The notes: a model not told the origin generated them from the letters alone. A stretch of DNA of 64,000 nucleotides from an uncultured Gammaproteobacteria bacterium (GCA_965230935.1 OZ246400.1:87222-151221); one strand, 5' to 3'. Numbered from the stretch's first letter, positions 2,205 to 61,122 are shown. Translations and numbers: made by a program.

Positions 2205-3274
2205 GTATGACCAAACTTACGATCCAACTGGTTACGTGGAATGGGAAGCGCTACATCCCATACTTATTTGCATCATTGCGCAAACAAACGTTTCAGGATT
2301 TTATTTTGCAAGTCCTTGATAATGGTTCAACTGATGGTACGGTGGCTGCTATTGAGCATGAACTTACCACGTGCACCTTTGCACACCAATTTATTCGCAA
2401 TCAAACTAATTCCGGATTTGTCGGTGGCCATAATCAGCTTTTTGCAGAAGGAGAAAGTGAGTATGTATTGTTGCTCAACCAAGATATGTATTTGATGCCC
2501 GAGTATGTTCGCAGACTGATGATGACGATGGAGCATCATGCTGATATTGGTGCAACAAGCGGACGGCTCATGCGGTGGGATTTTCATCTTTTAGCTGATC
2601 GAGGGGCTCACGGATTGCACCACAGTTTCACTCAATATATTGATACGTTAGGATTGAAAGTGTTTCGTTCTCGACGTGTAGTCGACTGGTATGCTGGTGC
2701 GCGGTGGCCAGAAGTGGCAAAAACCTTGCATGAAAGTAGTGGAGCTGAGCTCGAAGTATTTGGGATCTCCGGGGCCTTGCCAATGTACCGGAGATCTGCT
2801 ATTACAAAGGTGCTTGTCGATGGCCAACTTTTTGATCCGCTCTATTTTGCGTATAAAGAAGATGTTGATTTAGCGTGGCGTCTGCGGATTAGTGGTTCGC
2901 GTGCAGTGGTGGTGACTGATGCCGTTGCATACCACGATCGGAGTTCCTCAGGTACGGCGATCTCTGATGTGGGTGCTGCAAAAAATCGCAAGACCAAATC
3001 AGCATTAGCGAATTATCACTCGTATAAAAATCATCTGTACACCTTGATTAAAAACGAGTATGGGGCAAACTATGCTCGAGATTGGTTGTGGATTGAGCTG
3101 TATGAGTGGAAAAAGTTTTGGTACTTGTTGTTGTTTGAGTTCAAGAGTTGGCTCGCAATTACTCAAATAATTAAGCACCGGAAAACAGTATGCCGTACTC
3201 GTCGCCAACTCAAGCGCGCACGCAGTACTTCAGCGAAAGCCTTACGAAAGTGGTGGACTACCTACCAGCGATAA
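2201..3274 (+). CDS. Family 2 glycosyltransferase
   Basis: VLDNGSTDGT and LLNQDM motifs. The start overlaps the upstream stop (ATGA). Confidence 0.8.
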   Translation: MSMTKLTIQLVTWNGKRYIPYLFASLRKQTFQDFILQVLDNGSTDGTVAAIEHELTTCTFAHQFIRNQTNSGFVGGHNQLFAEGESEYVLLLNQDMYLMPEYVRRLMMTMEHHADIGATSGRLMRWDFHLLADRGAHGLHHSFTQYIDTLGLKVFRSRRVVDWYAGARWPEVAKTLHESSGAELEVFGISGALPMYRRSAITKVLVDGQLFDPLYFAYKEDVDLAWRLRISGSRAVVVTDAVAYHDRSSSGTAISDVGAAKNRKTKSALANYHSYKNHLYTLIKNEYGANYARDWLWIELYEWKKFWYLLLFEFKSWLAITQIIKHRKTVCRTRRQLKRARSTSAKALRKWWTTYQR

Positions 3275-3275
3275 T

Positions 3276-4106
3276 ATGCATGACATTGCAATTACTATTG
3301 TAAACTACAACATGCGAGATGCGATTCTCGCATGCTTACAAACACTGCGCGCAGATATTGCCAGCAGTAATCTTGATGTTGTGGTAACTATTGTTGATAA
3401 CGCATCATCAGATAATTTACAAAGAGTACTTGCGAATCAGTTCCCAGAAGTACGATTCATTGCCAATGATGCGAATGTGGGATTTGGACGAGGAAACAAT
3501 GTTGGTTTGCAATCGGTAAAAGCGAAGTACTACTTTGTGCTTAATCCAGACACCAGTTTTGTGCAGCCAAATACCTTGTCACGGTTGTACGATTGGATGG
3601 AGCGAGAACCAAAAGTGGGCATGATTGGCCCAAAGTTAATATATCCGGACGGTACATTGCAAAAAAGCTGTTTTCGGTTTCCCAAGTTTTCTGACAAAAT
3701 AATGCGACAATTAAAACTCGACAGGTTTTATCGAGTCAAAAAGCGCATTGACCATTTTTTGATGGAAGATTTTGATCATCGGAGTGCGCGAGCAGTGGAT
3801 TGGGTTCTGGGGAGCGCGATGTTTGTGCGTGCCAAGGCACTTGAACAGGTTGGAGGATTTGATGATCGGTTTTTTATGTATTTTGAAGATTGTGATTGGT
3901 GCCGTCGGTTTTGGGAAGCACACTGGCCAGTGTATTATGTACCAGAGATTACCATTGCGCATGTCTATGCGCGTGCTACAACCAAAACCGGAGGGGTAAT
4001 TAAATCACTCCTCACCAGTCGTTTGGCGCGCGAGCATGTGAAGAGTTGGTGGCGATATTACCATAAGTGGCGCAATCGTCATTCTGTAGTCAATACTCCA
4101 TCATGA
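3276..4106 (+). CDS. Family 2 glycosyltransferase
   Basis: TIVDNASSD, VLNPDT and YFEDCDWCRR motifs of GT2. Confidence 0.8.
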   Translation: MHDIAITIVNYNMRDAILACLQTLRADIASSNLDVVVTIVDNASSDNLQRVLANQFPEVRFIANDANVGFGRGNNVGLQSVKAKYYFVLNPDTSFVQPNTLSRLYDWMEREPKVGMIGPKLIYPDGTLQKSCFRFPKFSDKIMRQLKLDRFYRVKKRIDHFLMEDFDHRSARAVDWVLGSAMFVRAKALEQVGGFDDRFFMYFEDCDWCRRFWEAHWPVYYVPEITIAHVYARATTKTGGVIKSLLTSRLAREHVKSWWRYYHKWRNRHSVVNTPS

Positions 4107-5203
4107 AGACGTATCCCAAAATTGCTGTTGTCTATCTTTCGTTTCATTGTGAACCGTATATTCCTTTGGTGATGCCAGCAATGGAAAAACTCACCTATCC
4201 AAAAGATCGCATTGAGTGGGTCATTGTTGATAATCCGCATCCTAAGCACGGTGCATCAGTTGAGTTTTTGCAACATGAAGTCATGCCTCATTCTGGGCGA
4301 TCACTCCCAAAAGTTACCATCATTGCCAATGATGAAAACTTGGGATTTGCCGGAGGGAATAATATGGGGATTGAGTATGCTATTGCTCATGACTTTGATT
4401 ATGTATTTTTTCTGAACAACGATGCGTATCCAGTGTCCGATTGTTTTGAACGACTTGTCGAAGCATTTACGCAGGACAATACCATTGGAATTGCGCAATC
4501 ATTGATGCTCTTACATAAAGAACCAACAAAGATCAACTCATCAGGAAATGCAATCCACTTTTTAGGATTTGGGTATTGTAATGATTACAAGGAGTCTGTT
4601 ACCGATCATCAATACGCGCCGATTGAAGATATTGCCTATGCCACTGGGGCGGCATTTATGATTCCGGTTCCGCTGCTCAAGCGCATTGGTGGATGGAACC
4701 ATGATTTGTTTTTGTATCATGAAGACATGGAATTTTCTTTGCGCGCAAAAGCACTCGCCAGCAAGCGTGTAGTGCTGATTAGTACAAGTGTAGTGCATCA
4801 TGATTATTCATTTAGTCGAAGCATCACGAAATATTATTGGATGGAGCGGAATCGTTTTGCGGTTTGGTTGATGTATCTGAAGTGGCGAACACTGCTGCTT
4901 ATCTTTCCGGCGGTGCTGATAATGGAATTCGGCAGCTTCACGTTTTCTCTGTTGCGTGGATGGTGGAAAGAAAAGTGCAAAGTCTATTGGTATTGGCTTC
5001 AGCCAAAACATTGGCGTTTATGGCTGAGGGCACGCAAACGGATTCAATCTCAACGGGTTATCACCGATCGTGAGCTCATGAGCAGCTTTGTGGGTAAAGT
5101 GCTTTTTCAAGAAGAGGTGGTAGAACATCCACTCTTGCGCTATGTGGCAAATCCGGTATTTAACACCTATTGGAAGGTTGTTAAAAAACTTATTGTTTGG
5201 TAG
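4103..5203 (+). CDS. Family 2 glycosyltransferase
   Basis: In-frame ATG at 4103 overlapping the upstream TGA (ATGA). VIVDNPHP, FLNNDA and LYHEDMEF motifs. The ORF-track start at 4067 is probably too early. Confidence 0.75.
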   Translation: MKTYPKIAVVYLSFHCEPYIPLVMPAMEKLTYPKDRIEWVIVDNPHPKHGASVEFLQHEVMPHSGRSLPKVTIIANDENLGFAGGNNMGIEYAIAHDFDYVFFLNNDAYPVSDCFERLVEAFTQDNTIGIAQSLMLLHKEPTKINSSGNAIHFLGFGYCNDYKESVTDHQYAPIEDIAYATGAAFMIPVPLLKRIGGWNHDLFLYHEDMEFSLRAKALASKRVVLISTSVVHHDYSFSRSITKYYWMERNRFAVWLMYLKWRTLLLIFPAVLIMEFGSFTFSLLRGWWKEKCKVYWYWLQPKHWRLWLRARKRIQSQRVITDRELMSSFVGKVLFQEEVVEHPLLRYVANPVFNTYWKVVKKLIVW

Positions 5204-5214
5204 GGTAATTGAGT

Positions 5215-6291
5215 ATGAAAGCACTGCTGACCGGTGGAGGACATGCAACGCGATTGCGTCCGATTACCGAGACGATTAACAAGCACTTGATCCCATTGGC
5301 AAACAAGCCTATGATTGTTCGCGCTATTGAAAAAGTGCGTGCAGCAGGGATCACTGACATCATTATTAACACTAATCCAGGAGAGAAAACACTTCAGGAG
5401 TTTTTAGGTGATGGGAGTGCCTACGAGGTATCAATTACCTATCGCGAACAAATCGGTGGTCCACTTGGGTTGGCTCATGTGCCTACCTGTGCTCGGGATT
5501 TACTTGAAGGTGAAGATTTTTTGTTTTACTTGAGTGACAATATTATTTTGGGTGAAATCAATCATTTTGTTGAGGAGTTCACTGCTGGGCAGCGTAATGC
5601 TATGCTCGCGTTTTCGAAAGTTCCTGATCCGCAACGATTTGGTGTTCCGATTTTTGAAGGTGACACGTTGGTTCGTGTGGAAGAAAAGCCTGAGAAGCCA
5701 CAAAGTGATTTTGCGGTAACTGGAATTTATCTTTTTGATAAGCACTATTTTGATGCATTTGAAACACTCAAGCCAAGTGCGCGCGGAGAGTATGAGATTA
5801 CTGACATCCATACCTGGTATTTGCAAAACGGTCACAATGTTGGCTGGAAAGAGATTACTGGTTGGTGGAAAGATACAGGGAAAGCAGAAGATCTACTCGA
5901 AGGTAATCAGCTTTTGCTTCATGAGATGACTCGTGAGGCCACCTTTAATCATGCAAAGATCGGGGATCGTGTTCGGGTGCAAGGTCGGGTGCAAATTGGG
6001 GAAGGCACGGAGATTGATGAGAATGTGTTAGTGCGAGGTCCGGTGAGTATTGGAAAAAACTGCACCATTAAAAATAGCTACATTGGCCCGTACACATCAA
6101 TTGGAGACGATACTGAGATTTATAATACGGAGATGGAGAATTGTGTAGTATTAGAAAAAGCTGATATCAACTCTGGAGTTCGAATTGTTGATAGTTTGAT
6201 TGGAAAGAATGTTACCATTACTCCTGCGCACAGCTCTTTGCCGTCAGGACATAAAATGATTTTGGGAGACAACTCTATGATGGAGTTGTAA
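5215..6291 (+). CDS. Sugar-1-phosphate nucleotidyltransferase (long-form glucose-1-phosphate thymidylyltransferase-like) with C-terminal left-handed beta-helix
   Basis: LTGGGHATRLRPIT matches the GxGTRL nucleotidyltransferase signature. The C-terminal half has hexapeptide-like I/V-G repeats. It is adjacent to the GT2 cluster. Confidence 0.75.
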   Translation: MKALLTGGGHATRLRPITETINKHLIPLANKPMIVRAIEKVRAAGITDIIINTNPGEKTLQEFLGDGSAYEVSITYREQIGGPLGLAHVPTCARDLLEGEDFLFYLSDNIILGEINHFVEEFTAGQRNAMLAFSKVPDPQRFGVPIFEGDTLVRVEEKPEKPQSDFAVTGIYLFDKHYFDAFETLKPSARGEYEITDIHTWYLQNGHNVGWKEITGWWKDTGKAEDLLEGNQLLLHEMTREATFNHAKIGDRVRVQGRVQIGEGTEIDENVLVRGPVSIGKNCTIKNSYIGPYTSIGDDTEIYNTEMENCVVLEKADINSGVRIVDSLIGKNVTITPAHSSLPSGHKMILGDNSMMEL

Positions 6292-6297
6292 CGTTGG

Positions 6298-7611
6298 CTA
6301 TTGGATATCAAATGTAATAATTTGTTGCGCACCGTCCCATGTAATGAGGCCGGTGATTGTTTTGCCATCGTTTGAGATTGTTAGGTCTTGCCAGCTTAGT
6401 TCAGGGAGTAGAGAATAGGTATTACGAGTGTCTCGACCGTCATACTCGAGGAGGATTGCCTCATCATCAAGCAAAATTAGCACATACCCCGTATTCGTAA
6501 CTGGGTACACCCGAGAAATTTTTTTACTGCTGCGCGTTAAAAGTTGAAAGGCTCCTTCAGGAATATGTCGCCAAACCTCTGAATTGTTATACAGCAGCAG
6601 CTCACCATCGTCATGAGTGGCGTGAGTAAGTGTTTCAAACGAAAGTGTTTCAGTAGTCCCATCACGTACAGCAACTGTTGTTTGGGCACGGGTGTTTCGC
6701 AGATAGATTGTTCCATCGTGGTTGGTAAGATACTGATATGATCCTTGGGGAAGTGTGATTGGTTCGTCAGAACCAACGGTAAGGGTATAAGACAGTCCAG
6801 TATCTGCGCTCAACATAATGTCATTCGCAAAAAGCCGCTGCTTGTGATCGGTAATCCAGGTAATCTCTTTAGTAATTGTATGCATGTAGGCATCTAGACT
6901 GGATGCTTCCATTACGCGGATCATCCACGGACTCACCGGATCCCACCCGAAAAATTTAAATTCATAATCATCGGTATTAATGCTGGTAAGTCCATCAGGG
7001 CGAGCTCTTGAGAAAATAAATTCTTCAGATCGTACGGTATCAGCATAGGTCACCCCTACAATTGCTCGCTCACCATCTGGACTCCACGTGATGGAGTGAC
7101 CTTGCAGCGCAAGTGGTTCGTCAAAGTGAATCGTGTTGTGGGTATTGTCGTGATAGTACGTGAGGGTTGAGGAGCTTGGGTCAATATGCAGTCGAGTTGA
7201 TCCATCAGATGAGAGACCAATTACATGGTGATTCGGGATTCGCTCAGTCGCTTGAAACACTGGTTGTTTAAACAACGTTGTCGTAATAAATGTAGTCTCT
7301 TTTGAATGGACATCAACTCGCTTGGCATAGGAGAAATAGCCATCCTTAGTAATCTGGACATGCACAGTTGATGGCAGCAGGCGCGTAATACGCAATGGCG
7401 TATTGCTATGGTGCTGGTCATTCACTAAGACGCTCGTGGTAGTTGGTTCAGTTTTAATCAAAAGAGAGCCGGTTGAGATGATCGATCGGCTGGGCCAATG
7501 GATAGTATATCCGGAGCCATATGTAAGTACGGTAATCGTGGTAATCAAGAAGAATAGGACAAAAAATAGCCACACCACGAAGCGTAATTTGTAATTTTGG
7601 TATGCTTGCAT
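6298..7611 (-). CDS. Membrane-anchored PEGA-domain protein, function unknown
   Basis: An N-terminal TM helix, then a PEGA-like segment SVLVNDQ...VHVQITKDGYFSYAKRV, then a large beta-rich extracytoplasmic region. Confidence 0.55.
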   Translation of the reverse strand: MQAYQNYKLRFVVWLFFVLFFLITTITVLTYGSGYTIHWPSRSIISTGSLLIKTEPTTTSVLVNDQHHSNTPLRITRLLPSTVHVQITKDGYFSYAKRVDVHSKETTFITTTLFKQPVFQATERIPNHHVIGLSSDGSTRLHIDPSSSTLTYYHDNTHNTIHFDEPLALQGHSITWSPDGERAIVGVTYADTVRSEEFIFSRARPDGLTSINTDDYEFKFFGWDPVSPWMIRVMEASSLDAYMHTITKEITWITDHKQRLFANDIMLSADTGLSYTLTVGSDEPITLPQGSYQYLTNHDGTIYLRNTRAQTTVAVRDGTTETLSFETLTHATHDDGELLLYNNSEVWRHIPEGAFQLLTRSSKKISRVYPVTNTGYVLILLDDEAILLEYDGRDTRNTYSLLPELSWQDLTISNDGKTITGLITWDGAQQIITFDIQ

Positions 7612-51423: not shown

Positions 51424-51501
51424 ATATAACCAAAACCTCCCACAAGGGGAGGATTTTGGTTATTGCTCACTATCGTGAAGGTTGTTCGAACAGGGTTTTA
51501 C
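51424..51501 (+). repeat. Repeat family copy 1 (hairpin plus U-tract, then conserved 35-bp core)
   Basis: atataaccaaaacctcccacaaggggaggattttggttatTGCTCACTATCGTGAAGGTTGTTCGAACAGGGTTTTAC. It is about 90% identical over roughly 80 bp to copy 2. Confidence 0.8.
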
Positions 51502-51698
51502 TTAGAAAGCAGCTGAAAAGTTGTATTTTTTATATCTAAAATTAAGTTATGACACTCTTGACAAAAAAGCGCTTTTGTGGTAGTTTAATTAGTTCTCCAG
51601 CCAGGAAGAGCAGATGAATGACGCACCTCCTTAACGTGCAAAAAAACAAAAAATCATTCAACTGTTTCTTTAACCCACATGGACTAAGGAGGTCTGCG

Positions 51699-52121
51699 AT
51701 GGGGTATGTTCCTGGTAGGAGTTACACGGGTGTTTCTGTGGTCGTTGATTCGAAGGGGTTGCGTTTCATCTTGCTTTCGAGCAAGGAGGATGCGTGGCAC
51801 TTCCAGCGGCAGTGGTTTGCGCGTAGAGAGGATTATGGCTGCTGCCGTAACCTCTGTTACGACATTAGTGTCAGAGCTGTCGATGGGGAGGAGCGAACTG
51901 ACGATTTGGTGGGTTCTGAGTTCATGCTCAGAGAGTGCCATAGCGATTCGCCTATTCGATTTTCTGATGTCCGAGTCAATCTCAATGCCAATGGGGAGCT
52001 CTTCCTCGTGGTGGTGGGATCGCAGGCTCGAGCGTTCTCTTCTCTGGATCGAGATGGTCATGGGCAGCTGCTTCCTGGTAGGGACGGCAGCCCGGACATC
52101 GCGGTTCTTCACTACTACTAA
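51699..52121 (+). CDS. Hypothetical protein (GC-enriched cassette gene)
   Basis: Strong Shine-Dalgarno AAGGAGG 6 nt upstream of the ATG at 51699. A TTGACA-17-TAGTTT promoter lies upstream (51558). Length 140 aa, no recognised domain. Confidence 0.55.
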   Translation: MGYVPGRSYTGVSVVVDSKGLRFILLSSKEDAWHFQRQWFARREDYGCCRNLCYDISVRAVDGEERTDDLVGSEFMLRECHSDSPIRFSDVRVNLNANGELFLVVVGSQARAFSSLDRDGHGQLLPGRDGSPDIAVLHYY

Positions 52122-52258
52122 CTACTTAAAGGCTCTGGTGCAACGGACGTTGTGTCGGGGCCTTTCGATTTGTGACAAATATGAAAGAGAGGATAAGCAA
52201 AACCTCGATAGGTGATTATCGAGGCTGCGTGGTAAGTTGGTTGAATCCGCGGCGCACG

Positions 52259-52972
52259 TTAGGTGGTATCTTCGGGAAAGATGGTTCCGTACACCTCCAG
52301 ACAGCTCTCTCTAACCTCCCTGTACATCGGATTTTCTCCCGTGAGATCATCCTGAAAAGGTGGTTCAAACGCACCCATGAAGAGCTCTGCTTTACGTTGG
52401 CCAGAGCGCAGCAGCGCCGACAAGTAATCGTAATCTTCCAGCCCAAATGTGGACATGTCATCATGGATCTGTGCGAGCGTCGTACCGATCTCTATGTGAA
52501 GTCCTCGAAGCCCTTCGATTGTACAGCGCATGACACATGCAGGATGTGCGCGATGGTAGTAGTTGTGGACAATCAGGCTCCAGAGCATGTCTTTCCCATC
52601 GATTGGTGCAGAGCTTTCACGCGCAGCCACCTCGCAGCTGATGGGTTCCGGGGGCAAATCATTCCCGTAGATGATCGTGGTGAGGTGGGTGAGAGCATCA
52701 TGGAACGGATAGTTTGCCGGCTCAACGCTCGCATCGTCCTCGTGCAGGTTGCCAAACACAGCATTGATACAGTCGTTCAGATTTTCAGCTACCAGACTGC
52801 GAATGTGTGGGGACGACAAGCGAGACAGGGCATCCCTGCACGCACGAACTCGGCGGTGGTAGTACTGATGTGCCAAAGCCGCAACGCACAGGTGAATTTT
52901 ACTGTTGTGGTTTTGGAAGATCATGCGCGCTCCTGCGCATGAAAGACGTTGGATGTCTTTTTCGATACGCAA
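52259..52972 (-). CDS. Hypothetical protein with internally duplicated H-x-YYHR motif (GC-enriched cassette gene)
   Basis: 237 aa. AHQYYHRRVRAC and VHNYYHRAHPAC suggest an internal duplication. Convergent with the previous gene. Confidence 0.45.
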   Translation of the reverse strand: MRIEKDIQRLSCAGARMIFQNHNSKIHLCVAALAHQYYHRRVRACRDALSRLSSPHIRSLVAENLNDCINAVFGNLHEDDASVEPANYPFHDALTHLTTIIYGNDLPPEPISCEVAARESSAPIDGKDMLWSLIVHNYYHRAHPACVMRCTIEGLRGLHIEIGTTLAQIHDDMSTFGLEDYDYLSALLRSGQRKAELFMGAFEPPFQDDLTGENPMYREVRESCLEVYGTIFPEDTT

Positions 52973-53097
52973 GTCGCGCCTCCTTTACTGGGAGTAGGGA
53001 ATCATCTTTATAGATGTGTGTCAAATTTTAATTAGTGGAAAATAAATAATTTGAACAGACGTTCGCTTTGTTCGCTAGGATTCAAATCAGCTCTCAA

Positions 53098-53176
53098 ATA
53101 TAACCAAAACCCTCCCACAAGGGGAGGATTTTTGGTGTATGCTCACTATCGTGAAGGATGTTAGAACTGGATTTTC
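53098..53176 (+). repeat. Repeat family copy 2
   Basis: aatataaccaaaaccctcccacaaggggaggatttttggtgtaTGCTCACTATCGTGAAGGATGTTAGAACTGGATTTTC. Confidence 0.8.
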
Positions 53177-53222: not shown

Positions 53223-54326
53223 ATGAAAGAAAAATACATACCATCAGCAGCAGAAATTGAAAGAGCTGAGAGCATGATGACTCCTCAGCAGCGTGAAATG
53301 TCAGAAAAGCGGGCCAGATTTAAATTCCAAGAGCGGGATGCTTTTGATGATTTTATGGTACATATTAGTCAGTCAGGAGAGCGGCGAGAGGCGACCGACC
53401 AGGAAAAGGCACGGATGGACAAGAATTTTGCAAAGCTGTGGGAAGTATTAGGTGATTCTGAGATCACGTGGTCTGTGGATGGTGCGCTCAATATATCAGT
53501 ACTACAAGGAGATTATATTGGCATTCATAAAGATGTGGACATCAGCATTGGCATGGATGAAATTGATACGTTAGATGGTGTGTTGCTCAAAGGTGGGTAT
53601 GGTTTGTTTTTGTCCACTCGCCACGAAGTGGGTGGTGAGATGAAAACAATCATGGAACGCGTTGACAGTGATAGATTTCGAGCCGCAGATGTTGATAAGC
53701 GACTTATTGCTGCGATAGATAAGGATGGAAAAATACAAGAGGAAGAAACGTTAAACTTTTTAGACATTCATGTAATTGAAAAAAATGAGGGTGGTAATAT
53801 TGTGGGTTCTGCAGGGGTTGAGTTACCTGAGGAGTGGTTTGTGCCAAGACCTTTGGAATTTAGAGGTACTATGGTTAATACGTCTCATCCTGCAAAAGTG
53901 GCGTATTATAAGCTCCATGATACTCGCAATTACGATCGGACAGATCTTAACAAACTTGCTGAGATTGGCGCACTCGGTGTCGACGATGTGGATACGATAG
54001 GCCGACTTATTGAAGAAGAAATTGCTAATCGAGAGCAAAAAGCAGATGGGGTTTTGGATGATGTGGTACAAAGACTAGATCCAAAAATGGACGCAGAGCA
54101 GATTTTCGCATCAGTAATGCAACATCCTATTTTTGTCCAAGCGGTTGAGCGAAATGAAGATGCAACGAGACAGATTCGTGAGTTTTGTAAACAACTTTCA
54201 GCATTAGATGAGTTGACTTTGCCAAATGTAAAAATGGCAGCAAGCGATGTGTTTAGTATGGATGATATGCATAATACCCTCCGAGCAAATGTTGAGGAGT
54301 TAAGAGGGTGGGTTGAGCAGAAATAA
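53223..54326 (+). CDS. Pol-beta-superfamily nucleotidyltransferase related to ANT(2'')/LinB-type enzymes, with N- and C-terminal extensions
   Basis: TWSVDGALNISVLQGDYIGIHKDVDISIG resembles the GGWAIDA...H-DIDL active-site motif of aminoglycoside-2''/lincosamide nucleotidyltransferases, recalled from memory. 367 aa, longer than the resistance enzymes. Confidence 0.5.
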   Translation: MKEKYIPSAAEIERAESMMTPQQREMSEKRARFKFQERDAFDDFMVHISQSGERREATDQEKARMDKNFAKLWEVLGDSEITWSVDGALNISVLQGDYIGIHKDVDISIGMDEIDTLDGVLLKGGYGLFLSTRHEVGGEMKTIMERVDSDRFRAADVDKRLIAAIDKDGKIQEEETLNFLDIHVIEKNEGGNIVGSAGVELPEEWFVPRPLEFRGTMVNTSHPAKVAYYKLHDTRNYDRTDLNKLAEIGALGVDDVDTIGRLIEEEIANREQKADGVLDDVVQRLDPKMDAEQIFASVMQHPIFVQAVERNEDATRQIREFCKQLSALDELTLPNVKMAASDVFSMDDMHNTLRANVEELRGWVEQK

Positions 54327-54338
54327 TACAAAGCGCAC

Positions 54339-54398
54339 CACAGGAGGTGCATTTTTGCATCAGCTCACTATCTGAAGGATGTTAGAACCGGGTTTTGT
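54339..54398 (+). repeat. Repeat family copy 3 (different hairpin, same core)
   Basis: gcaccacaggaggtgcatttttg, then catcaGCTCACTATCTGAAGGATGTTAGAACCGGGTTTTG. Confidence 0.75.
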
Positions 54399-54425
54399 TC
54401 AATTGGTTGAGTTTGGACTGCATTT

Positions 54426-54965
54426 TTATCTTCTGGAGTTTCTATTAATCATCTCGTCTACACGTTTTGGTTCGAGACCAGCTTCGTATGCCTCCTCCTC
54501 AATTTTTGTAATTTCTTTTCTATAGTCTTTTCCAGTGTGTTCGTTCATTTCTCTGTTAAGTGCTGCTTCTGCTTCATTCTCTAGTCTTTTGACTCTTTCT
54601 AGTTTATGTTCTATAAACGTTTCAATAACATTGTAAAGCTCATCTTTTTCGTCTTGTTCAATCTTTCCCTTGGTACCACCAATACGCTCAAAGATTGATC
54701 GAGCCTCATCTATAAGTGTAAAATACTTTTCATTTATTTGAGCTATTTGTCCAGTTAAATAAGATGCATTACCAGGAGTTTTAATTTTGTACTCCTTAAA
54801 ATCATTCATCGTTGGAAATTCCATAACAATGTCATTTATGATTGGCTCTATTTCCAATTCAAATGCGGTAGTAAATTTTTTAAGTTTTTCTTCTATCAAC
54901 CCTCTTTTCTCGTTAGAGAATTTTGATGGTTCGTATTCAGGGATTGTATCAATTAAATTTGTCAT
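54426..54965 (-). CDS. Hypothetical charged helical protein
   Basis: About 180 aa, Glu/Lys-rich, no recognised motif. The start was chosen at MTNLID. Confidence 0.45.
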   Translation of the reverse strand: MTNLIDTIPEYEPSKFSNEKRGLIEEKLKKFTTAFELEIEPIINDIVMEFPTMNDFKEYKIKTPGNASYLTGQIAQINEKYFTLIDEARSIFERIGGTKGKIEQDEKDELYNVIETFIEHKLERVKRLENEAEAALNREMNEHTGKDYRKEITKIEEEAYEAGLEPKRVDEMINRNSRR

Positions 54966-55046
54966 ATTTTTGTAATTCCATCTCTTAAGAGAGTAACACA
55001 AAAATTCTGATACCCATATTTCTTACTTCAAATATTCTTTAAATTT

Positions 55047-55090
55047 ACCAAAAATGCTCACTATTGTGAAGGATGTTCGAACTGTATTTT
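55047..55090 (+). repeat. Repeat family copy 4 (core only, hairpin absent)
   Basis: accaaaaaTGCTCACTATTGTGAAGGATGTTCGAACTGTATTTTG. Confidence 0.75.
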
Positions 55091-55097
55091 GCGGAGT

Positions 55098-55844
55098 TTA
55101 ATCTCTTTTTATCAACGGAATCATGTTAGCAAATATAGATGGCATATCTGTTTTCTTAACAAGGATCAGAAAATTATTCTCATGCATTTGATCATAAACT
55201 GATGGAAACAGCCAGTTTTTTCCATCAACTTTTATCATGAAAACAAATCCTCTTGGCAAGACTATTTCATAGTAACTAGCCTCATCTTTACTTTCTATTA
55301 AGCCACTTATTTGACTAATTCCTCTGACAACCTGGTTTATTTTTTTATCTGTTGACTCTTGCCTATAAACAAAGACTTGTATCTGTCTTGCGGCATCCAA
55401 GTCGTTGTCTCTTATCGCTTTTAAAAAAGTACTTTCATGGTCGCCCAAATCAACACCCCTCGCTTCTTCTCTGGCTGATATGTGAAACCTCCACAATAGC
55501 GATAGAGCGAATAGCTGAAGGTGGTCTAGGTTAGCATTTGGTAAGATTAGATACTCATTGTCTCTTACAGTTGTTCTGGTTGGCTTAGTGGATATCAAAA
55601 TATTTTTCACCGACTCATCATAGACACCGATTTTTGCATCACACTCTCTACACAATATCTTAGCATCATATGAACCATCAGGGCGTTTTTTATTCAGGGT
55701 GTCTTTGCCTACCAAAAGTACGTGGTCGTTACTTGCTTGCTTTTTTTGCTCTTTAATTACCCACTTCGGGAATAGGTGAGATTTGCATCTATTTTTTTCG
55801 TTAATCTTTACATGACACATGCGACAATAAATATCTTCTTCCAT
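55098..55844 (-). CDS. Protein with N-terminal HNH-like zinc-finger nuclease motif
   Basis: CRMCHVKINEKNRCKSHLFPKW...ILCRECDAKIG fits the Cys pair, H-h-h-P, then LCxxC-xxxG pattern of HNH endonucleases. A C-terminal domain of about 170 aa is unknown. Confidence 0.45.
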   Translation of the reverse strand: MEEDIYCRMCHVKINEKNRCKSHLFPKWVIKEQKKQASNDHVLLVGKDTLNKKRPDGSYDAKILCRECDAKIGVYDESVKNILISTKPTRTTVRDNEYLILPNANLDHLQLFALSLLWRFHISAREEARGVDLGDHESTFLKAIRDNDLDAARQIQVFVYRQESTDKKINQVVRGISQISGLIESKDEASYYEIVLPRGFVFMIKVDGKNWLFPSVYDQMHENNFLILVKKTDMPSIFANMIPLIKRD

Positions 55845-55861: not shown

Positions 55862-56488
55862 TTATGGTAGTGACTCACATGCCATACCATCTGTGTCACG
55901 ATCAAGTCCATGTATATCATGTGCGACATTGCTCAAACAACACTCATAGAGATCCTGTGCTTGTTGTTGCGTAGAAAAATCTTTGCAGTTGTAGATGTTG
56001 TTTGAGCAATTACAACTTGGCACAGGTACTTTTGTGGGAGGGGTAATAACAGGCTCATCCACTGGATCTTCGATTTCTTTCTCGATTGTAGGTAACTCTT
56101 CATTTGGTGTCTTTGTAGACTTAGTACTTTCTAGAACCTCTTTCCCAGCTTCTGTATTTAACGACTTATTATTGCTAGTTACCAGATCTTCCAATTCTAT
56201 AATTTCCTGTACGATATTTTCGATGGAGAGGGTCTTATCAGAGGTATTTTCAATTTGAATTACTTCATCGCCTAATGAAGTTTCCTTCTCCTGAATCGTA
56301 GTAAATTCTTCGTCTATTTGCTGTGCTTCTTGGATGGTACCTTCATCAATTTCTGCAACAGGTGTTTCTACCATCACTGATTTCTCAAATTGTTGAACTT
56401 CGGGTAGCGGTAGACTTCCTTGTTCACAACCAGCACCTATTAGCGAAATTGTTAGCACTATGAGTAGAATTTTTATCTTCGCAAACAT
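55862..56488 (-). CDS. Lipoprotein with C-terminal Excalibur calcium-binding domain
   Basis: Lipobox LIGAGC, then an acidic low-complexity linker, then a C-terminal [13 protein letters not shown]...[10 protein letters not shown] Excalibur-type motif. Confidence 0.6.
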
Positions 56489-56546
56489 AATCTTGATGTT
56501 TGAGTATTGTCACTGTGAACGGTCGATGGTGATTGGTGGGGTTTTA

Positions 56547-57938
56547 CTACCAGAATTTTAGTTTTCTAAACAGTATCTCAATAAAAGATTCTGGCTCTTC
56601 AATTTTTGTCACACGCTCGCGTGGCTTTGCTTTTGGTCTTATCCACTCACAGGTATTACCGACTTCTTTATAGTTTTCGTCACACAACCAAACATCTGTG
56701 GTACTTTCTACAGCATGAGCGTGTTCTGGTATCATTACACAGAATTTTTTATTAAGAGATGGTGCGTATCCGTCTTCACAATTCAATGTTGTCGGTTTAT
56801 TAAAAGGCTTTGCTGCTGGCCTCTCCTTCAAGACATTTGTGTCTTTAACAACTTCCTCGATTTTTATTTGTGGATTCTGCAGTTCAATTACTGACTCTGT
56901 AATTGTATTATCATAATTGATTAAATCAATAACAATATCATTTTCTTCCTCCTCCTCAACACAATAATCGTTCTTAAATATATATCCATCACGACAGACA
57001 CACTCTTTTAACCAGGAGTCATATTCTGAATGATATCCATACCGATCACTACAGTAATCGCTAGCACCGATACATTTTTGTGAAGTGCTGTCAAATAAAT
57101 ATTCACTTTTACACCCGCATGTATCTCCAAGTACCGTAGCTTCAGAATAATAACCGTAAAGATTTTGGCAGTAATCGTCGTTGCTTATGCATTTCGTAAC
57201 ACTCTCATTAAATCTATACCCGTACTTACATTCACATTTGTCTCCTGCGAGATTCGATTTTGCATTGTAACCGTATGTATTTTTACATGAATCATCAACA
57301 CTGATGCACTTTGTTCCGTGGCTATTGAACACGTAACCATAGTTACATTCACAAGTTTTGTCTACTGAGTTGAAATTGGATCCGTAACCATACTCTTGCG
57401 TGCAATAGCTACTACCTAGAATACAAGATTCACCACCGAAAGTGCCTGTATCGACGACGTAGCCATAGTTGCACTTGCAATCCCCACTCAGAGAGTTATA
57501 TGTCGAATTGAGGGGGCAGTTAGGTTGCTGGTCTAGGTAGAAGTTTCCGAAATTATAGTTTGAGTAAGTATCGTAATTATTACCAGGTTGGTTAGATTCG
57601 TAGAGACTCTTACCAGTGTAATAATCAGGGTCTGTTATGTATGTTGGTGTATCCCAATAGGTATCTCTTGTCCCGTAGGAATCGTTGTAAAGTCCCTGGC
57701 TGGGCTTCCATCCGTAGTTATCGTACTTTAAGCCATTTGGGTTGCTCCTGACGTGTGGTTTGACATATGTTCCATCACTTCTGTAGTAACCCTTTACAGA
57801 GACATATGCATCTGCTGTAAGTGGTGAGAATATGGTGGATGTCGCTACGATTAGGACGACGACTGTGAATTTTAATATGTTGCTATTCATAATTTCTCTA
57901 TCAATCATAGTATCTAATAGTAATGCAATTCGAGTCAA
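56547..57938 (-). CDS. Secreted Cys-rich tandem-repeat protein
   Basis: Signal peptide, a Tyr/Asn/Asp-rich region, then five tandem modules of about 37 aa (C-x-C-x-YGY-x-F...KCI-x-DD-x-C-x-N-x-YGY). The C-terminus has additional Cys pairs. Confidence 0.6.
   Translation of the reverse strand: MTRIALLLDTMIDREIMNSNILKFTVVVLIVATSTIFSPLTADAYVSVKGYYRSDGTYVKPHVRSNPNGLKYDNYGWKPSQGLYNDSYGTRDTYWDTPTYITDPDYYTGKSLYESNQPGNNYDTYSNYNFGNFYLDQQPNCPLNSTYNSLSGDCKCNYGYVVDTGTFGGESCILGSSYCTQEYGYGSNFNSVDKTCECNYGYVFNSHGTKCISVDDSCKNTYGYNAKSNLAGDKCECKYGYRFNESVTKCISNDDYCQNLYGYYSEATVLGDTCGCKSEYLFDSTSQKCIGASDYCSDRYGYHSEYDSWLKECVCRDGYIFKNDYCVEEEEENDIVIDLINYDNTITESVIELQNPQIKIEEVVKDTNVLKERPAAKPFNKPTTLNCEDGYAPSLNKKFCVMIPEHAHAVESTTDVWLCDENYKEVGNTCEWIRPKAKPRERVTKIEEPESFIEILFRKLKFW
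56963..57500 (-). repeat. Tandem repeats of about 111 bp encoding the Cys-rich modules
   Basis: Recurring gtaaccgta/gtaaccata and acattcaca blocks at the nucleotide level. Five copies at the protein level. Confidence 0.55.
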
Positions 57939-57982
57939 TATCTATATCAGAATATCCAAGAGCTTCATCTACAAAATTTTGA

Positions 57983-59392
57983 CTAAAACCTACCTAAGGC
58001 TGTGGCATTTTCAAAAAATGTATCATGGACGACCGCTTTAATTAGTAGGTCGATCTTGTTTGTGATCTCTCCTTCCTCTATCTTTTGCGTTGCATACTCT
58101 TTATCATTCTCACTAAAAATGAAGTGGCCACTTAGTGAGAATGAATTAGTAGGAATAAGAAAGAAATTTTCAATCAAATTATCACCGTCTTTATCTACAC
58201 CAACTCCGAGTATATAGTCATATTTCCTTGCAGAATCGGGTATTGAAAAACACCAGTGCTTATTCCGTGAATTTTCGGCACTATAAAATGCAACACTCGA
58301 ATATACAGGTAAGTTTTTCAATACAAAATAGATACCTTCCTCATCAATTCGTTTCTCAAGTAAATATTCCTCTAGATCTTTTCTTAGTTGCTTTTCGGCT
58401 TTTCTGATTTTGTATACCCCCTTGTTTGAGCGTGAAGGTAGTAGCCAATACAGTTTTTCCTGTACTCTATAAAACATTTCGTCATTGATGATTGGTTCAA
58501 ATGCCTTCTCTACGATTACCCAATCTTTTCTTTGATTTCGTCTGTAGCCACGTTTTAGTTTGTTACTAGTTTTGTTATACAAAAGAGTGCCTCTGTACGT
58601 TTCATTTGAGAGTACGTGAACTATTTTGGAGCTATTCCATTCTCCGCCACCAGGAGATTTAATGCCTTGGTTATCTAGACCACGTGCGATTTCGTTAGGT
58701 GAGGTGTTATCTAAGTCAAAAAGTTTAAAAATCTTTTTAACAGTTTCTGTAGATTCATCATTGGCAGGAACAAAGACTATTCTCCCATTTGCCAGAGCTT
58801 TTCTTTGCCCTTTTTTTAGAATGCGTTCAGGTTGTTTTTGTTCGTCCAAGAGGAGTCTTGCGTAACCATAAGGCGCAATTCCACCGACAGAGTAACCTTT
58901 TGATGTTATCTTGATACATCCATTAAAAACTTTTTTACTCAAATCTCTACTATATTCTGATGCAGATGCACGCTTAAGACTTCTAATCACTCCTGAAAAT
59001 GTCTGGTTGTCATCTTCTTTGGGAAACGGTTCCGAAGTATACAGAACTTTCTTTCCATGCTCTTTACATACAAATTCATAATGACCAGCTTCATTACTGT
59101 CGTCGAATCTGCCCCAACGAGAATCGTCGTATACTAACACATAATCAAACTCAGGTGCGTTGGGATTCTTTACCCAATCATTTATGAGTGATTGAAAACC
59201 AGGTCTGTCAGCCACAAGCCCAGTGTGCTTATCTTCTAAAGAATGGATGATCTCAACGTTATTTTGGTCGGCGTACTCTTTGGCAGCATCTTGCTGAATC
59301 TCAATCGAGTACTCTTGCATATCACGAGTCGACCTGCGACTATATGAAATTGCCTTTTTGGATTGACTCTCTCTAAACAACTGCCTAGCCAT
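57983..59392 (-). CDS. Large serine recombinase (resolvase/integrase family)
   Basis: N-terminal resolvase catalytic motif AISYSRRSTRDMQEYSIEIQ, then a recombinase domain (GYSVGGIAPYGY) and a long C-terminal region. Length 469 aa. Confidence 0.75.
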   Translation of the reverse strand: MARQLFRESQSKKAISYSRRSTRDMQEYSIEIQQDAAKEYADQNNVEIIHSLEDKHTGLVADRPGFQSLINDWVKNPNAPEFDYVLVYDDSRWGRFDDSNEAGHYEFVCKEHGKKVLYTSEPFPKEDDNQTFSGVIRSLKRASASEYSRDLSKKVFNGCIKITSKGYSVGGIAPYGYARLLLDEQKQPERILKKGQRKALANGRIVFVPANDESTETVKKIFKLFDLDNTSPNEIARGLDNQGIKSPGGGEWNSSKIVHVLSNETYRGTLLYNKTSNKLKRGYRRNQRKDWVIVEKAFEPIINDEMFYRVQEKLYWLLPSRSNKGVYKIRKAEKQLRKDLEEYLLEKRIDEEGIYFVLKNLPVYSSVAFYSAENSRNKHWCFSIPDSARKYDYILGVGVDKDGDNLIENFFLIPTNSFSLSGHFIFSENDKEYATQKIEEGEITNKIDLLIKAVVHDTFFENATALGRF

Positions 59393-59396
59393 ACTC

Positions 59397-60341
59397 TTAC
59401 AGCACTGTGTCGGTTACTTCTTTCAACTCAGAGAGGGCAACTTTCTCTTTTTCCTCGAAGCCCTTACCTTTTTGGAGTCTTTTTGCTATGGATCGGGTCA
59501 ATTCCTCAATTTGCAATGAGAGACCTGACAAGATAGTATTTTCAGCGAGTTGCTTAACTCCCATGTCGTCATTTTTCAAGAACTGTAATAGCTCTTTCTT
59601 GTTGGCTTCTGTGCGCTTCACAACGCGGCTGATCGTTCGATATTCCTTTGCTGAGTTAATTACCTCATGTCGTGTTTTGTAAAAAATGCGATCTACGACA
59701 TCTTTAATCTTAAACTCGTCTATGTCTCGAATTTTCGGGTATAGTTTTACGAATTCAACTATGTAGGATTCCTCATCGAGAAGTTCGTATTTCCTTAGAA
59801 GGTTCATGTACCTCTCTTCAATCTTTTTTAGATTAAGTGAATTCGTAACAACAGTGCTGGACATGTTAAGTGCTTTTGCTATTTCCTTAGGCTTCATGCC
59901 TGTTTCTTCGCGGATAGTGTTTAGTGCAGCAGAACGCTCTAAAGGTTTCCAAGAGCGTCTGTTGTTCTGTGCTTCATATCTGATCAATTCCAAATCACCC
60001 TTACTTGTATTTTTAGGTAAGACCTTACATGCAAGTTCTTCAATTTTTAGCTTCTTGGCAGAGCGAAATCTGCGATGACCATCTAAGATGAGGTAGGTAT
60101 CATTGCCTCTATCCAGTACCAGCAAATCTCGAAGAACACCCCATTTTTTGATGGATTCCAAAATTCTATTTTTATCTCCGTCAAGACCGAAGTCTCTTCG
60201 TGGTTGCTTCTTGTCTTCCACTAACTGCGAAGTTTTGAGTATTTTTTGCTTGATAACTTTTTCATTCATAGAAAACTCTTTTGAACGTAACTTCCTTCTT
60301 GGATTAGGAAAAACCCTATCATAAGGGTTCAAAAAAGTCAA
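59397..60341 (-). CDS. ParB-like nuclease/partition domain protein
   Basis: LILDGHRRFRSA matches the ParB/Srx GxxR-DGHHR-type motif. Possible HTH in the middle. The start is ambiguous (TTG at 60341 or ATG at 60269). Confidence 0.6.
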   Translation of the reverse strand: MTFLNPYDRVFPNPRRKLRSKEFSMNEKVIKQKILKTSQLVEDKKQPRRDFGLDGDKNRILESIKKWGVLRDLLVLDRGNDTYLILDGHRRFRSAKKLKIEELACKVLPKNTSKGDLELIRYEAQNNRRSWKPLERSAALNTIREETGMKPKEIAKALNMSSTVVTNSLNLKKIEERYMNLLRKYELLDEESYIVEFVKLYPKIRDIDEFKIKDVVDRIFYKTRHEVINSAKEYRTISRVVKRTEANKKELLQFLKNDDMGVKQLAENTILSGLSLQIEELTRSIAKRLQKGKGFEEKEKVALSELKEVTDTVL

Positions 60342-60355
60342 CTCATTGAGTTGAC
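60337..60355. promoter_or_regulatory. Perfect 9-1-9 palindrome at the parB-like 5-prime end (candidate operator or parS-like site)
   Basis: GTCAACTCA-T-TGAGTTGAC. Confidence 0.35.
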
Positions 60356-60480
60356 GTACTATGAATAATAGTCAATTTTGACTAAAATTAGTTTTTTCTA
60401 GTAAAGAGAGAGTTTATTTTTATGAGTTGGTAATCCTAATTACATCTTCCACAACTGATAATTTTTGCAAGCACACATCT

Positions 60481-61122
60481 TTATTTTCCCCATGTTATCT
60501 CATATTCTTTCATCATCCTCTTTTGTTCTTTTTTTGCTCTTGGATCTACAATCAATACCACTTCGTCGTCACATGTTCTTACTTTGTCGAGTTTTTGCTG
60601 GGCTAACTTTCTTCCGTGGTCTATTTGGTATTTACCATTCAATACATTCATATAAATCTGCTTCATTATATCCAAGTTGTTGTAAAGAATGCTTCTTAAA
60701 AGTTTACCTCTAGCCAGGTCTTCTATAGCTTCTACTAGATTCTTGCTGGGTTCAAATTTACCCTCTTTATCACTGTCTATAAATTCATTCAATTCCTTAG
60801 CTTCTAAATTTCTCGCTAACTTTAAGCGCTCAATATGTTCCCGCTCTGATATTTCATAATCTCTAACCATGTTTTGTAGGTCCAAATTTTTCGTGCCAGA
60901 AGTTGAGTTTATATCATTGTAAAAAATGTTTAACAAAAATAGTGGCGCAGATAGGTTTTTTATCTCAAAAATAATTTCTCTCAGGCTTTGGTATCCGTCT
61001 TTATGTCTTCGGTTACTGTCCATCCTGTTGAGTTTCTTTTCTAATCGTCCAATACTTGTAAAGACAAAACGATATAGGAGGTAAAGAAACATAATGATAA
61101 TTAGGAATTGTAGTGTACTCAT
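60481..61122 (-). CDS. Hypothetical N-terminally membrane-anchored protein
   Basis: One TM helix, then a charged helical domain. It is the first gene of the minus-strand operon. Length 213 aa. Confidence 0.45.
   Translation of the reverse strand: MSTLQFLIIIMFLYLLYRFVFTSIGRLEKKLNRMDSNRRHKDGYQSLREIIFEIKNLSAPLFLLNIFYNDINSTSGTKNLDLQNMVRDYEISEREHIERLKLARNLEAKELNEFIDSDKEGKFEPSKNLVEAIEDLARGKLLRSILYNNLDIMKQIYMNVLNGKYQIDHGRKLAQQKLDKVRTCDDEVVLIVDPRAKKEQKRMMKEYEITWGK

Follow-up and report, generated by a model that had tools for sequence, protein, structure and literature searches.

The region between positions 53,223 and 55,844 of a 64,000-nt stretch of DNA from an uncultured bacterium (GCA_965230935.1, OZ246400.1:87222-151221; hereafter, the window) was found to contain three genes, encoding a 367-aa nucleotidyltransferase, a 179-aa protein, and a 248-aa protein with a putative zinc finger, interspersed with direct copies of a repeat element. 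With a probability of roughly 60%, these are accessory genes that function independently of one another and lie in a variable, recombination-prone part of a Patescibacteria (candidate phyla radiation, CPR) chromosome, and a 37-nt box within the repeat marks the junctions of cassettes. The original prediction for this locus had proposed that the nucleotidyltransferase, the helical middle protein, and an HNH-type protein form a functional gene set of the defence or toxin kind. Had the three genes formed a defence system, it would have been of a new type; the evidence points to juxtaposition instead. An open reading frame (ORF) listing of the window confirmed the three genes at the predicted positions, namely the nucleotidyltransferase gene at 53223-54326 on the plus strand, and the 179-aa and 248-aa genes at 54426-54965 and 55098-55844, respectively, on the minus strand. 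Both the nucleotidyltransferase subfamily and the 248-aa family can be regarded as variants, as yet uncharacterised, of known kinds, and the array of boxes, the most unusual feature of the locus, is most worth following.

The three-gene interpretation was found to fail on linkage. When the ORFs of all retrieved loci were scanned with hidden Markov models of the nucleotidyltransferase and 248-aa families, co-occurrence was seen in this genome's own contigs only; in the independent loci, 8 for the nucleotidyltransferase and 7 for the 248-aa family, the two were never together within 6-7 kb. The nucleotidyltransferase has no conserved partner gene in the 8 other loci, where the neighbours vary from locus to locus. 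In the window, the nucleotidyltransferase gene lies on the opposite strand, convergent with the 179-aa and 248-aa genes across a predicted bidirectional terminator hairpin. The GC content at third codon positions (GC3) also differs along the locus, with values of 0.35 for the nucleotidyltransferase, 0.26 for the 179-aa gene, 0.35 for the 248-aa gene, and 0.58 for a neighbouring segment, cassette A. The middle gene is a lineage-specific orphan: a k-mer-seeded search of 5.8 billion proteins returned the self-match only, and nothing was found in Pfam, NCBIfam, PHROGs, PADLOC, or PDB. Its product is rich in Glu and Lys (gene GC content, 33%), and a helical nature is plausible from this composition. 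The start codon of this gene at 54965 is the ATG chosen by gene callers on public contigs, and a TTG start at 55001 would give a longer reading of 191 aa (54426-55001).

That none of the named defence systems matches this gene set, as had been stated, was corroborated with PADLOC-DB v2. No system model was matched by the three proteins, the best value (E = 0.023) being a coiled-coil overlap with PD-T4-6, and the 179-aa and 248-aa proteins gave no hits. The arrangement expected of cyclic-oligonucleotide-based antiphage signalling (CBASS/CD-NTase) or HEPN-MNT systems, in which a cGAS/DncV-like or MNT-type nucleotidyltransferase is accompanied by an adjacent effector or HEPN partner, was not found at the locus. 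A single multi-gene system on a mobile element, with the nucleotidyltransferase as signal generator or modifier and the HNH protein as effector beside the helical protein, would be in keeping with the adjacency of the three genes in a variable region next to an integrated element, with the resemblance of the nucleotidyltransferase fold to the MenT/TglT toxins, and with the presence of 248-aa relatives in defence neighbourhoods. Given the opposite strands and the intervening terminator, the orphan status of the middle gene, the differing GC3, and the lack of co-occurrence, such a system is very improbable. The nucleotidyltransferase is not nested within resistance enzymes, and the histidine of the HNH-like pattern is conserved; these were the two points on which the original prediction had proposed to be judged, and neither of them addressed linkage.

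The repeat consists of a terminator-like hairpin and the 37-nt box, which is 85-100% conserved, and four direct copies (R1-R4) are present on the plus strand of the window. In R1 (51432-51499), a hairpin with a 16-bp stem (51426-51463) is followed by the box (51463-51499), whereas R2 (53107-53175) combines a hairpin of related stem with a box (53139-53175) that ends 47 nt upstream of the nucleotidyltransferase start codon. The R3 hairpin (54330-54396) occupies the same position as those of R1 and R2 but differs in sequence (GCACC...GGTGC); its box (54361-54396) has a 1-nt deletion, and this copy would, to judge from its sequence, terminate transcription from both sides, the nucleotidyltransferase and 179-aa genes being convergent here. 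R4 (55045-55090) is without a hairpin, a 5'-arm-like ACCAAAAA alone being left, and its box (55054-55090) comes to within 8 nt of the 248-aa stop codon; on the minus strand, R4 presents a promoter-like TTCACA-17-TG-TAAATT upstream of the 179-aa gene. The array begins 28 nt past the stop codon of a gene for a 429-aa membrane protein. Isolation by the repeat, which had been proposed for each gene, holds for the nucleotidyltransferase (between R2 and R3) and for the 179-aa gene (between R3 and R4); the 248-aa gene has a box on its 3' side only, and its 5' end is separated by 17 nt from the adjacent gene in a co-directional block reaching as far as a serine recombinase.

A 27-nt core of the repeat, GCTCACTATCGTGAAGGATGTTAGAAC, occurs three times at no more than two mismatches, compared with a chance expectation of 0, and the 16-nt right half of this core occurs four times, compared with an expectation of 0.15. 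Shuffle controls supported the hairpins of R1 (z = -5.1) and R2 (z = -3.1), and a terminator scan recovered the same hairpins. The box has the consensus TG(C/T)TCACTAT(C/T)GTGAAGGATGTT(A/C)GAACTGGGTTTT, and can form a small hairpin (TCAC-N4-GTGA). A search with a profile built from the window's four boxes revealed four more boxes, again on the plus strand, at 391-425, 1610-1643, 2827-2861, and 3390-3425 of a second locus (L004, contig CAZVIA010000003.1), which has a GC content of about 30%, is labelled as an uncultured gammaproteobacterial metagenome-assembled genome, and has box flanks unrelated to the window. In L004, three of the boxes delimit a 1218-nt unit present as two exact tandem copies, each with genes for a Cys-rich protein of 143 aa and a J-domain protein of 190 aa. 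Sequence variants within the right two-thirds of the L004 boxes travel with the downstream cassette, which would place any exchange point in or left of TCACTATTGT. The hairpin is absent from R4 and from copies G1-G3, and is thus dispensable.

No further box was found in the other 60 kb of the window, in exact-pattern scans of GTDB representative genomes, JGI metagenomes, and IMG/VR, or by BLAST against plasmids and phages. No Rfam family was assigned to the repeats or to the GC-rich cassette, whether gathering thresholds or relaxed E-values were applied (best hits, E >= 2). Because the box is conserved across two compositionally different genomes, keeps one orientation, and bounds both a foreign-GC segment and a duplicated cassette, it can be read with moderate confidence as a recombination junction of cassettes. 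The box would then mark the junctions of an array that grows by cassette-like accretion, and would be used repeatedly for site-specific or homologous recombination. Should the box, common to the cassette-like arrays of two unrelated genomes, prove to be a true site of recombination, bacteria with very small genomes would seem to possess a mechanism for capturing genes.

The repeat might instead be a regulatory module, made up of a terminator and a protein- or polymerase-binding box, that insulates transcription units, in which case the cassettes would be nothing more than ordinary genes. A bona fide terminator-like hairpin is present in three of the four window copies, the genes of the L004 array are all oriented with the box, and the box combines its small hairpin with CTCACTAT, which resembles a T7-type promoter core. 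However, three of the eight boxes face the 3' end of a convergent gene, and Pfam scans of 39 of the 65 large window ORFs (30 near the array or among the other large ORFs) revealed no single-subunit RNA polymerase. Moreover, the box is 85-100% conserved between a 44%-GC and a 30%-GC genome although the flanks are unrelated, and it brackets both a foreign-GC segment and an exact tandem duplication; a purely regulatory repeat is, in view of these findings, distinctly unlikely. The reading of CTCACTAT as a T7-type promoter was set aside, since the scanned ORFs contain no phage-type RNA polymerase and three of the eight boxes face convergent genes. The 888-aa ORF of the window encodes a P-type ATPase. 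Another part of the box, GTTAGAAC, is close to the integron core site, GTTRRRY. A dif/Xer-site reading, and a likeness to the repeat of type I-F CRISPR loci (16 of 27 positions), were judged unconvincing.

The reading of the boxes as cassette junctions invites comparison with integron arrays and integrase-less attC clusters, in which, as here, repeats of the same orientation separate short genes or gene pairs, a foreign-GC segment is included, and genes lie in either orientation. The window array differs in that no tyrosine recombinase was detected in the window, by a low-sensitivity tblastn search with a XerA/IntI-like recombinase. In addition, the conserved part is a non-palindromic, linear 37-nt box, and the adjacent hairpin is short (~44 nt, shorter than known attC sites), variable, and dispensable; the passage of in-box polymorphisms with the downstream cassette in L004 is a further difference from attC. 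The Pfam scans of the 39 large ORFs revealed serine recombinases only, and no recombinase is present beside the L004 boxes within the 8 kb examined. A more far-reaching proposal would be that the box represents an undescribed cassette-accretion system common to a CPR bacterium and an unrelated low-GC genome, through which small, recombinase-less cassettes, here including the CPR-specific nucleotidyltransferase and a foreign-GC segment, are captured, duplicated, and exchanged at a simple conserved site by a recombinase in trans, possibly a neighbouring large serine recombinase, and that, independently, the 248-aa family is a new, widespread, single-gene zinc-finger nuclease defence factor without a solved fold analogue. 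This proposal is tentative and unlikely.

Several observations weigh against the view that the three genes are independent passengers of a cassette array. In a search for strain-level cassette polymorphism, the array arrangement was identical in all seven contigs from this population, so that mobility of the cassettes was not observed. The box is without a demonstrated recombinase, and the tblastn result for tyrosine recombinases, for all its low sensitivity, counts in the same direction. At the right end of the adjoining integrated element (see below), no box and no duplicated tRNA fragment were found. The 248-aa and 179-aa genes point in the same direction, no terminator intervenes, and co-transcription is therefore conceivable. 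Finally, the association of the 248-aa family with defence genes comes from seven contexts, four of which are related alphaproteobacterial plasmids.

The Pol-beta nucleotidyltransferase motif proposed for the 367-aa protein was found to be present (W83-S-V-D86-G-A ... H102-K-D104-V-D106-I), and the protein passed the Pfam model PF10706 (Aminoglyc_resit) with 30.6 bits, compared with a cut-off of 21, over residues 71-174. A profile search of the PDB returned LnuA only (4wh5 and 4fo1; E = 3e-4), and the profile alignment paired HKDVDIS with HRDIDI of LnuA, and FIDVH with YLDIH. In an AlphaFold2 model of high confidence (predicted local distance difference test score, pLDDT, of 92), a LnuA/ANT(2'')-like core spans approximately residues 66-245 and carries D104-x-D106 together with D181/H183. 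The best structural matches were LnuA and ANT(2''), for which 147 of 158 and 160 of 175 residues of the chains were aligned. The protein thus combines a Pol-beta nucleotidyltransferase fold with both the D-x-D metal site and the third catalytic carboxylate, and its LnuA/ANT(2'')-like core is predicted to retain an intact active site. Residues 1-65 form a helical N-terminal extension and residues 246-367 form a helical bundle. Since the core spans residues ~66-245, the extensions comprise about 65 and 120 residues; extra residues at both ends had been correctly anticipated, at sizes (about 70 and 150) that were too large. The structural comparison that had been suggested for the C-terminal region was informative to the extent that only generic helical bundles resemble it.

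At least 148 full-length homologues of the nucleotidyltransferase were identified, with 31-47% identity and lengths nearly all in the range of 360-390 aa (about 375 aa); among the matches listed, query coverage was 90-100% and E-values ranged from 1e-96 to about 1e-55. The named sources are Falkowbacteria, Uhrbacteria, Parcubacteria, or the "Patescibacteria group", and the family is almost entirely confined to CPR bacteria. In an alignment of 44 sequences, 22 positions are invariant, including W83, D86, G87, H102, K103, D104, D106, H183, K230, R235, D238, and D241. The N- and C-terminal helical extensions are kept across the whole CPR family, a LnuA/ANT(2'')-fold subfamily with two extra helical domains. 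Mechanistically, D104 and D106 would most likely hold Mg2+, with D181 as the third carboxylate, and a nucleoside monophosphate would be moved from a nucleoside triphosphate to an acceptor hydroxyl, presumably by a stand-alone enzyme. The acceptor is most likely a small molecule, such as an antibiotic or a metabolite, since the two closest structural relatives modify drugs and align over their whole chains; RNA or protein, the kind of acceptor used by the MenT toxins, is less likely.

Whether the gene is a true resistance cassette, encoding an aminoglycoside or lincosamide O-nucleotidyltransferase of the aadB/ANT(2'')-Ia or Lnu(A) type with accessory helical domains, was weighed against the family data. 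The passing PF10706 score, the near whole-chain structural matches, and the conserved catalytic carboxylates are compatible with this possibility, as are the cassette-like contexts of the gene, both in the window and at the end of an integron-like array in Falkowbacteria. The aadB gene is itself a classical integron cassette. Nevertheless, identity to the solved enzymes, Lnu(A)/LinA (PDB 4wh5, 4fo1) and ANT(2'')-Ia/AadB (PDB 4xje), is only 12-20%. The NCBIfam models for Lnu(A), Lnu(E), and Lnu(AN2) gave about 16 bits, compared with cut-offs of 300-350, a shortfall of about 300 bits. The protein is also twice the size of the resistance enzymes, rather than a compact single module of about 160-180 aa, and tblastn returned no match in 72,556 plasmids or 50,697 phages. 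Furthermore, in several CPR genomes the gene is surrounded by housekeeping or polysaccharide genes and has no flanking repeats; polA is its neighbour in L024 and is found within a few kb in L010 and L013. The protein is distant from the curated resistance enzymes and is not a bona fide member of them, in agreement with the earlier expectation that it would not be a classical resistance enzyme; a resistance cassette at this locus is, accordingly, unlikely. Annotation pipelines would nonetheless call the protein an aminoglycoside resistance enzyme because of PF10706, and the recognition of a well-defined, CPR-wide subfamily therefore bears on claims of "resistance genes" in CPR genomes.

A MenT/AbiEii-like toxin that nucleotidylylates tRNA, and is held in check by one of its own terminal extensions (N or C) or by a neighbour that escaped recognition, was likewise considered. 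The MenT1, MenT3 (TglT), and MenT4 toxins of Mycobacterium tuberculosis (PDB 8an4, 6j7n, and 6y56) have a similar fold but are structurally less like the nucleotidyltransferase than LnuA and ANT(2''), which scored higher. In contrast to the MenT/AbiEii toxin-antitoxin modules, no adjacent antitoxin gene or conserved partner accompanies the nucleotidyltransferase, and no upstream antitoxin gene is conserved in the eight loci. No AbiE or MenT-type model of PADLOC was matched, and in one locus (L025) the gene lies in an apparent operon with glycosyltransferase genes. A toxin of this kind is, on balance, quite improbable.

The contexts of the homologues are diverse. The neighbours are ClpP and alanine racemase in L001; a serine recombinase and an LTD protein in L002, with inverted copies of a 165-nt hairpin element on both flanks; HD_4, NADAR, and PolA in L010; PolA and PEP-utilising enzymes in L024; and an AAA_33, DUF4202, and glycosyltransferase operon in L025. 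In the Falkowbacteria loci L012-L015, the gene is found at the distal end of an integron-like array. The polA gene is located within a few kilobases of the CPR nucleotidyltransferase in three lineages (L010, L013, and L024), and is adjacent in L024; an AAA_33 kinase-like gene is located upstream in two lineages (L015 and L025). In L010, the homologue lies between the HD_4 gene, for a RelA/SpoT-type hydrolase, and the NADAR gene. The L002 homologue, P0008, is flanked by inverted, self-complementary elements of ~165 nt (5730-5896 and 7210-7368), the copies of which are 93% identical over 113 nt and have a closing stem of 35-39 bp, and a 524-aa serine recombinase is encoded 1.5 kb upstream of P0008. 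The integron-like array of a CPR genome is seen in L014 (2157-7450; Falkowbacteria GCA_001778235.1), as well as in L012 and L013. In L014, a 282-aa XerA/integron-integrase-like recombinase (NF040815, 228 bits with a cut-off of 220; TIGR02249, 228 bits with a cut-off of 265) is followed by small genes spaced by GC-rich repeats of ~190 nt (3092-3285, 3915-4108, and 5448-5659). This array also has attC-like imperfect palindromes (GCACAAC ... GTTGTGC). The nucleotidyltransferase homologue P0049 is the final gene of the L014 array, and the same protein is found in L015 with a different left context.

The 248-aa protein was matched by no Pfam, NCBIfam, or PADLOC model, and matched three PHROG families of unknown function (best E = 1.7e-12). 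A k-mer-seeded homologue search returned the protein itself only; an exhaustive phmmer search revealed 1273 cluster representatives (E <= 1e-3), almost all of 235-260 aa. Alignment of 76 members showed that C7, C10, H23, C65, and C68 are invariant, and that P26, G57, L64, F112, S115, R119, P180, and D207 are nearly so, giving the consensus C-x2-C ... A-H-I-I-P-K ... Y-D-x2-I-L-C-x2-C-D. Of the HNH pattern that had been proposed, the part C7-x2-C10 ... H23 ... C65-x2-C68 therefore stands, and the two C-x2-C pairs of a finger-type zinc site are present at the sequence level. H23, the putative catalytic His, sits in a strand of the structure model. The assignment to HNH itself is weakly supported: no HNH family model or solved beta-beta-alpha-Me structure was matched significantly, and the ligand position after C68 is Asp or Glu instead of the usual Asn or His.

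Pfam HNH_5 was matched by 5 of the 76 relatives (best E = 3.9e-4), and hhalign placed ILCxECDxxxG of the family on LLCRPCNIKKG of a canonical HNH protein, without significance. HNH_5 (PF14279) is a genuine His-Me finger family (PMC5714182), and the 248-aa family shares with it, and with His-Me finger groups 1 and 8 of that classification, the arrangement C-x2-C ... [A/S]-H-[IL]-x-P ... L-C-x2-C-[D/E]. The HNH call for the 248-aa protein is thus a weak lead, and the C-x2-C/His/C-x2-C-[D/E] module would most simply be a zinc-stabilised, divergent His-Me (HNH_5-like) finger. The fold of the alpha/beta C-terminal domain is confidently predicted and has no analogue in the PDB. In BFVD, one structural homologue was found, from an uncultured Myoviridae (TM-score 0.75).

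The 248-aa family is widespread and unnamed, and travels with restriction and defence genes and with mobile elements. On a Sphingomonas plasmid, the gene lies between a type ISP restriction enzyme with AAA ATPases and a DUF4238 gene accompanied by an SbcCD-like pair; on Agrobacterium and Sinorhizobium plasmids, it follows GIY-YIG, TIR, and HEPN genes; on an Aurantiacibacter plasmid, it comes directly after a restriction endonuclease. On a metagenomic contig, the gene directly follows two hsdS genes, and on a CPR-like contig it is found in a TraG/type IV secretion region. Guilt by association across seven loci suggests a defence or exclusion role. The 248-aa protein would act as a stand-alone nuclease or nucleic-acid-binding factor in defence or exclusion, carried as cargo at the end of an integrated element bearing serine recombinases. 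With about 1300 cluster representatives, the family is a reasonable candidate for defence-gene screens. In L006 (6700-7590), the DUF4238 protein beside a 248-family homologue starts with HHFIPQFLLREW, resembling the family motif AHIIPKxFF. Kinship of the two families through a common H-[IF]-I-P-[KQ] was dropped, because the profile comparison was not significant (probability 0.5%).

The 931-kb contig that carries the window belongs to a Patescibacteria (CPR) chromosome and encodes ordinary housekeeping functions, such as CTP synthase, Dus, thymidine kinase, a P-type ATPase, and tRNAs. The mobile, variable context that had been proposed for the locus was borne out by the repeats, by a segment of foreign composition, and by an integrated element with serine recombinases. 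The segment, cassette A (51500-53106), occupies the 1.6 kb between R1 and R2 and has two ORFs without a family match; it looks foreign because its GC content is 53%, compared with 44% for the window overall, and its GC3 is 0.58. Long ORFs are present on both strands of cassette A in the same codon register. Public gene calls place proteins of 167 and 253 aa on the plus strand, and a canonical AAGGAGG ribosome-binding site is present both before a 237-aa minus-strand ORF and before a 140-aa plus-strand ORF. Codon-position GC does not settle the coding strand of the second ORF (253 aa on the plus strand or 237 aa on the minus strand). The cassette A proteins had no hits in Pfam, NCBIfam, PHROGs, or PADLOC, and the 237-aa ORF had none in the PDB or in plasmids; for none of the readings did a homologue turn up.

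The low-GC region beyond the array is an integrated mobile element of about 11.5 kb, with the 248-aa gene as its outermost cargo, that runs from position 55098, a provisional left boundary, to about 66590, past the window end (L027 12501-14188). The left arm, upstream of the 248-aa gene, is a co-directional minus-strand block of 34-39% GC (55862-61122), which encodes a secreted Excalibur-domain protein, a Cys-rich 463-aa protein, a 213-aa protein, a large serine recombinase of 469 aa (57983-59392), and a ParB-like protein (59397-60341). Past a divergent promoter region, the genes encode a protein with a DnaG-type zinc ribbon, another resembling AAA_25/DnaB_C, and the second large serine recombinase (558 aa), the ORF of which overlaps at its 3' end with tRNA-Gln(CTG), adjoining dnaX. 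The best NCBIfam hits of both serine recombinases are weak and include CcrB, CcrA, and CcrC, with XisF scoring higher for the 558-aa protein; the scores are 49-83 bits, compared with Ccr cut-offs of 900.

These hits are one of the likenesses to composite islands of the staphylococcal cassette chromosome (SCC) type, along with the tandem, recombinase-less small cassettes, the direct repeats, and an adjoining element with large serine recombinases and primase- or helicase-like genes. The locus differs from SCC islands in the low recombinase scores, in the lack of a box at the far end of the element, in the position of the array, which is not at a conserved target gene, and in the second box genome, which is without a recombinase within 8 kb. 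At the opposite end of the window, a 401-aa ORF (48-1253) without a Pfam match lies in a stretch of 64% GC, and this stretch may be another foreign segment.

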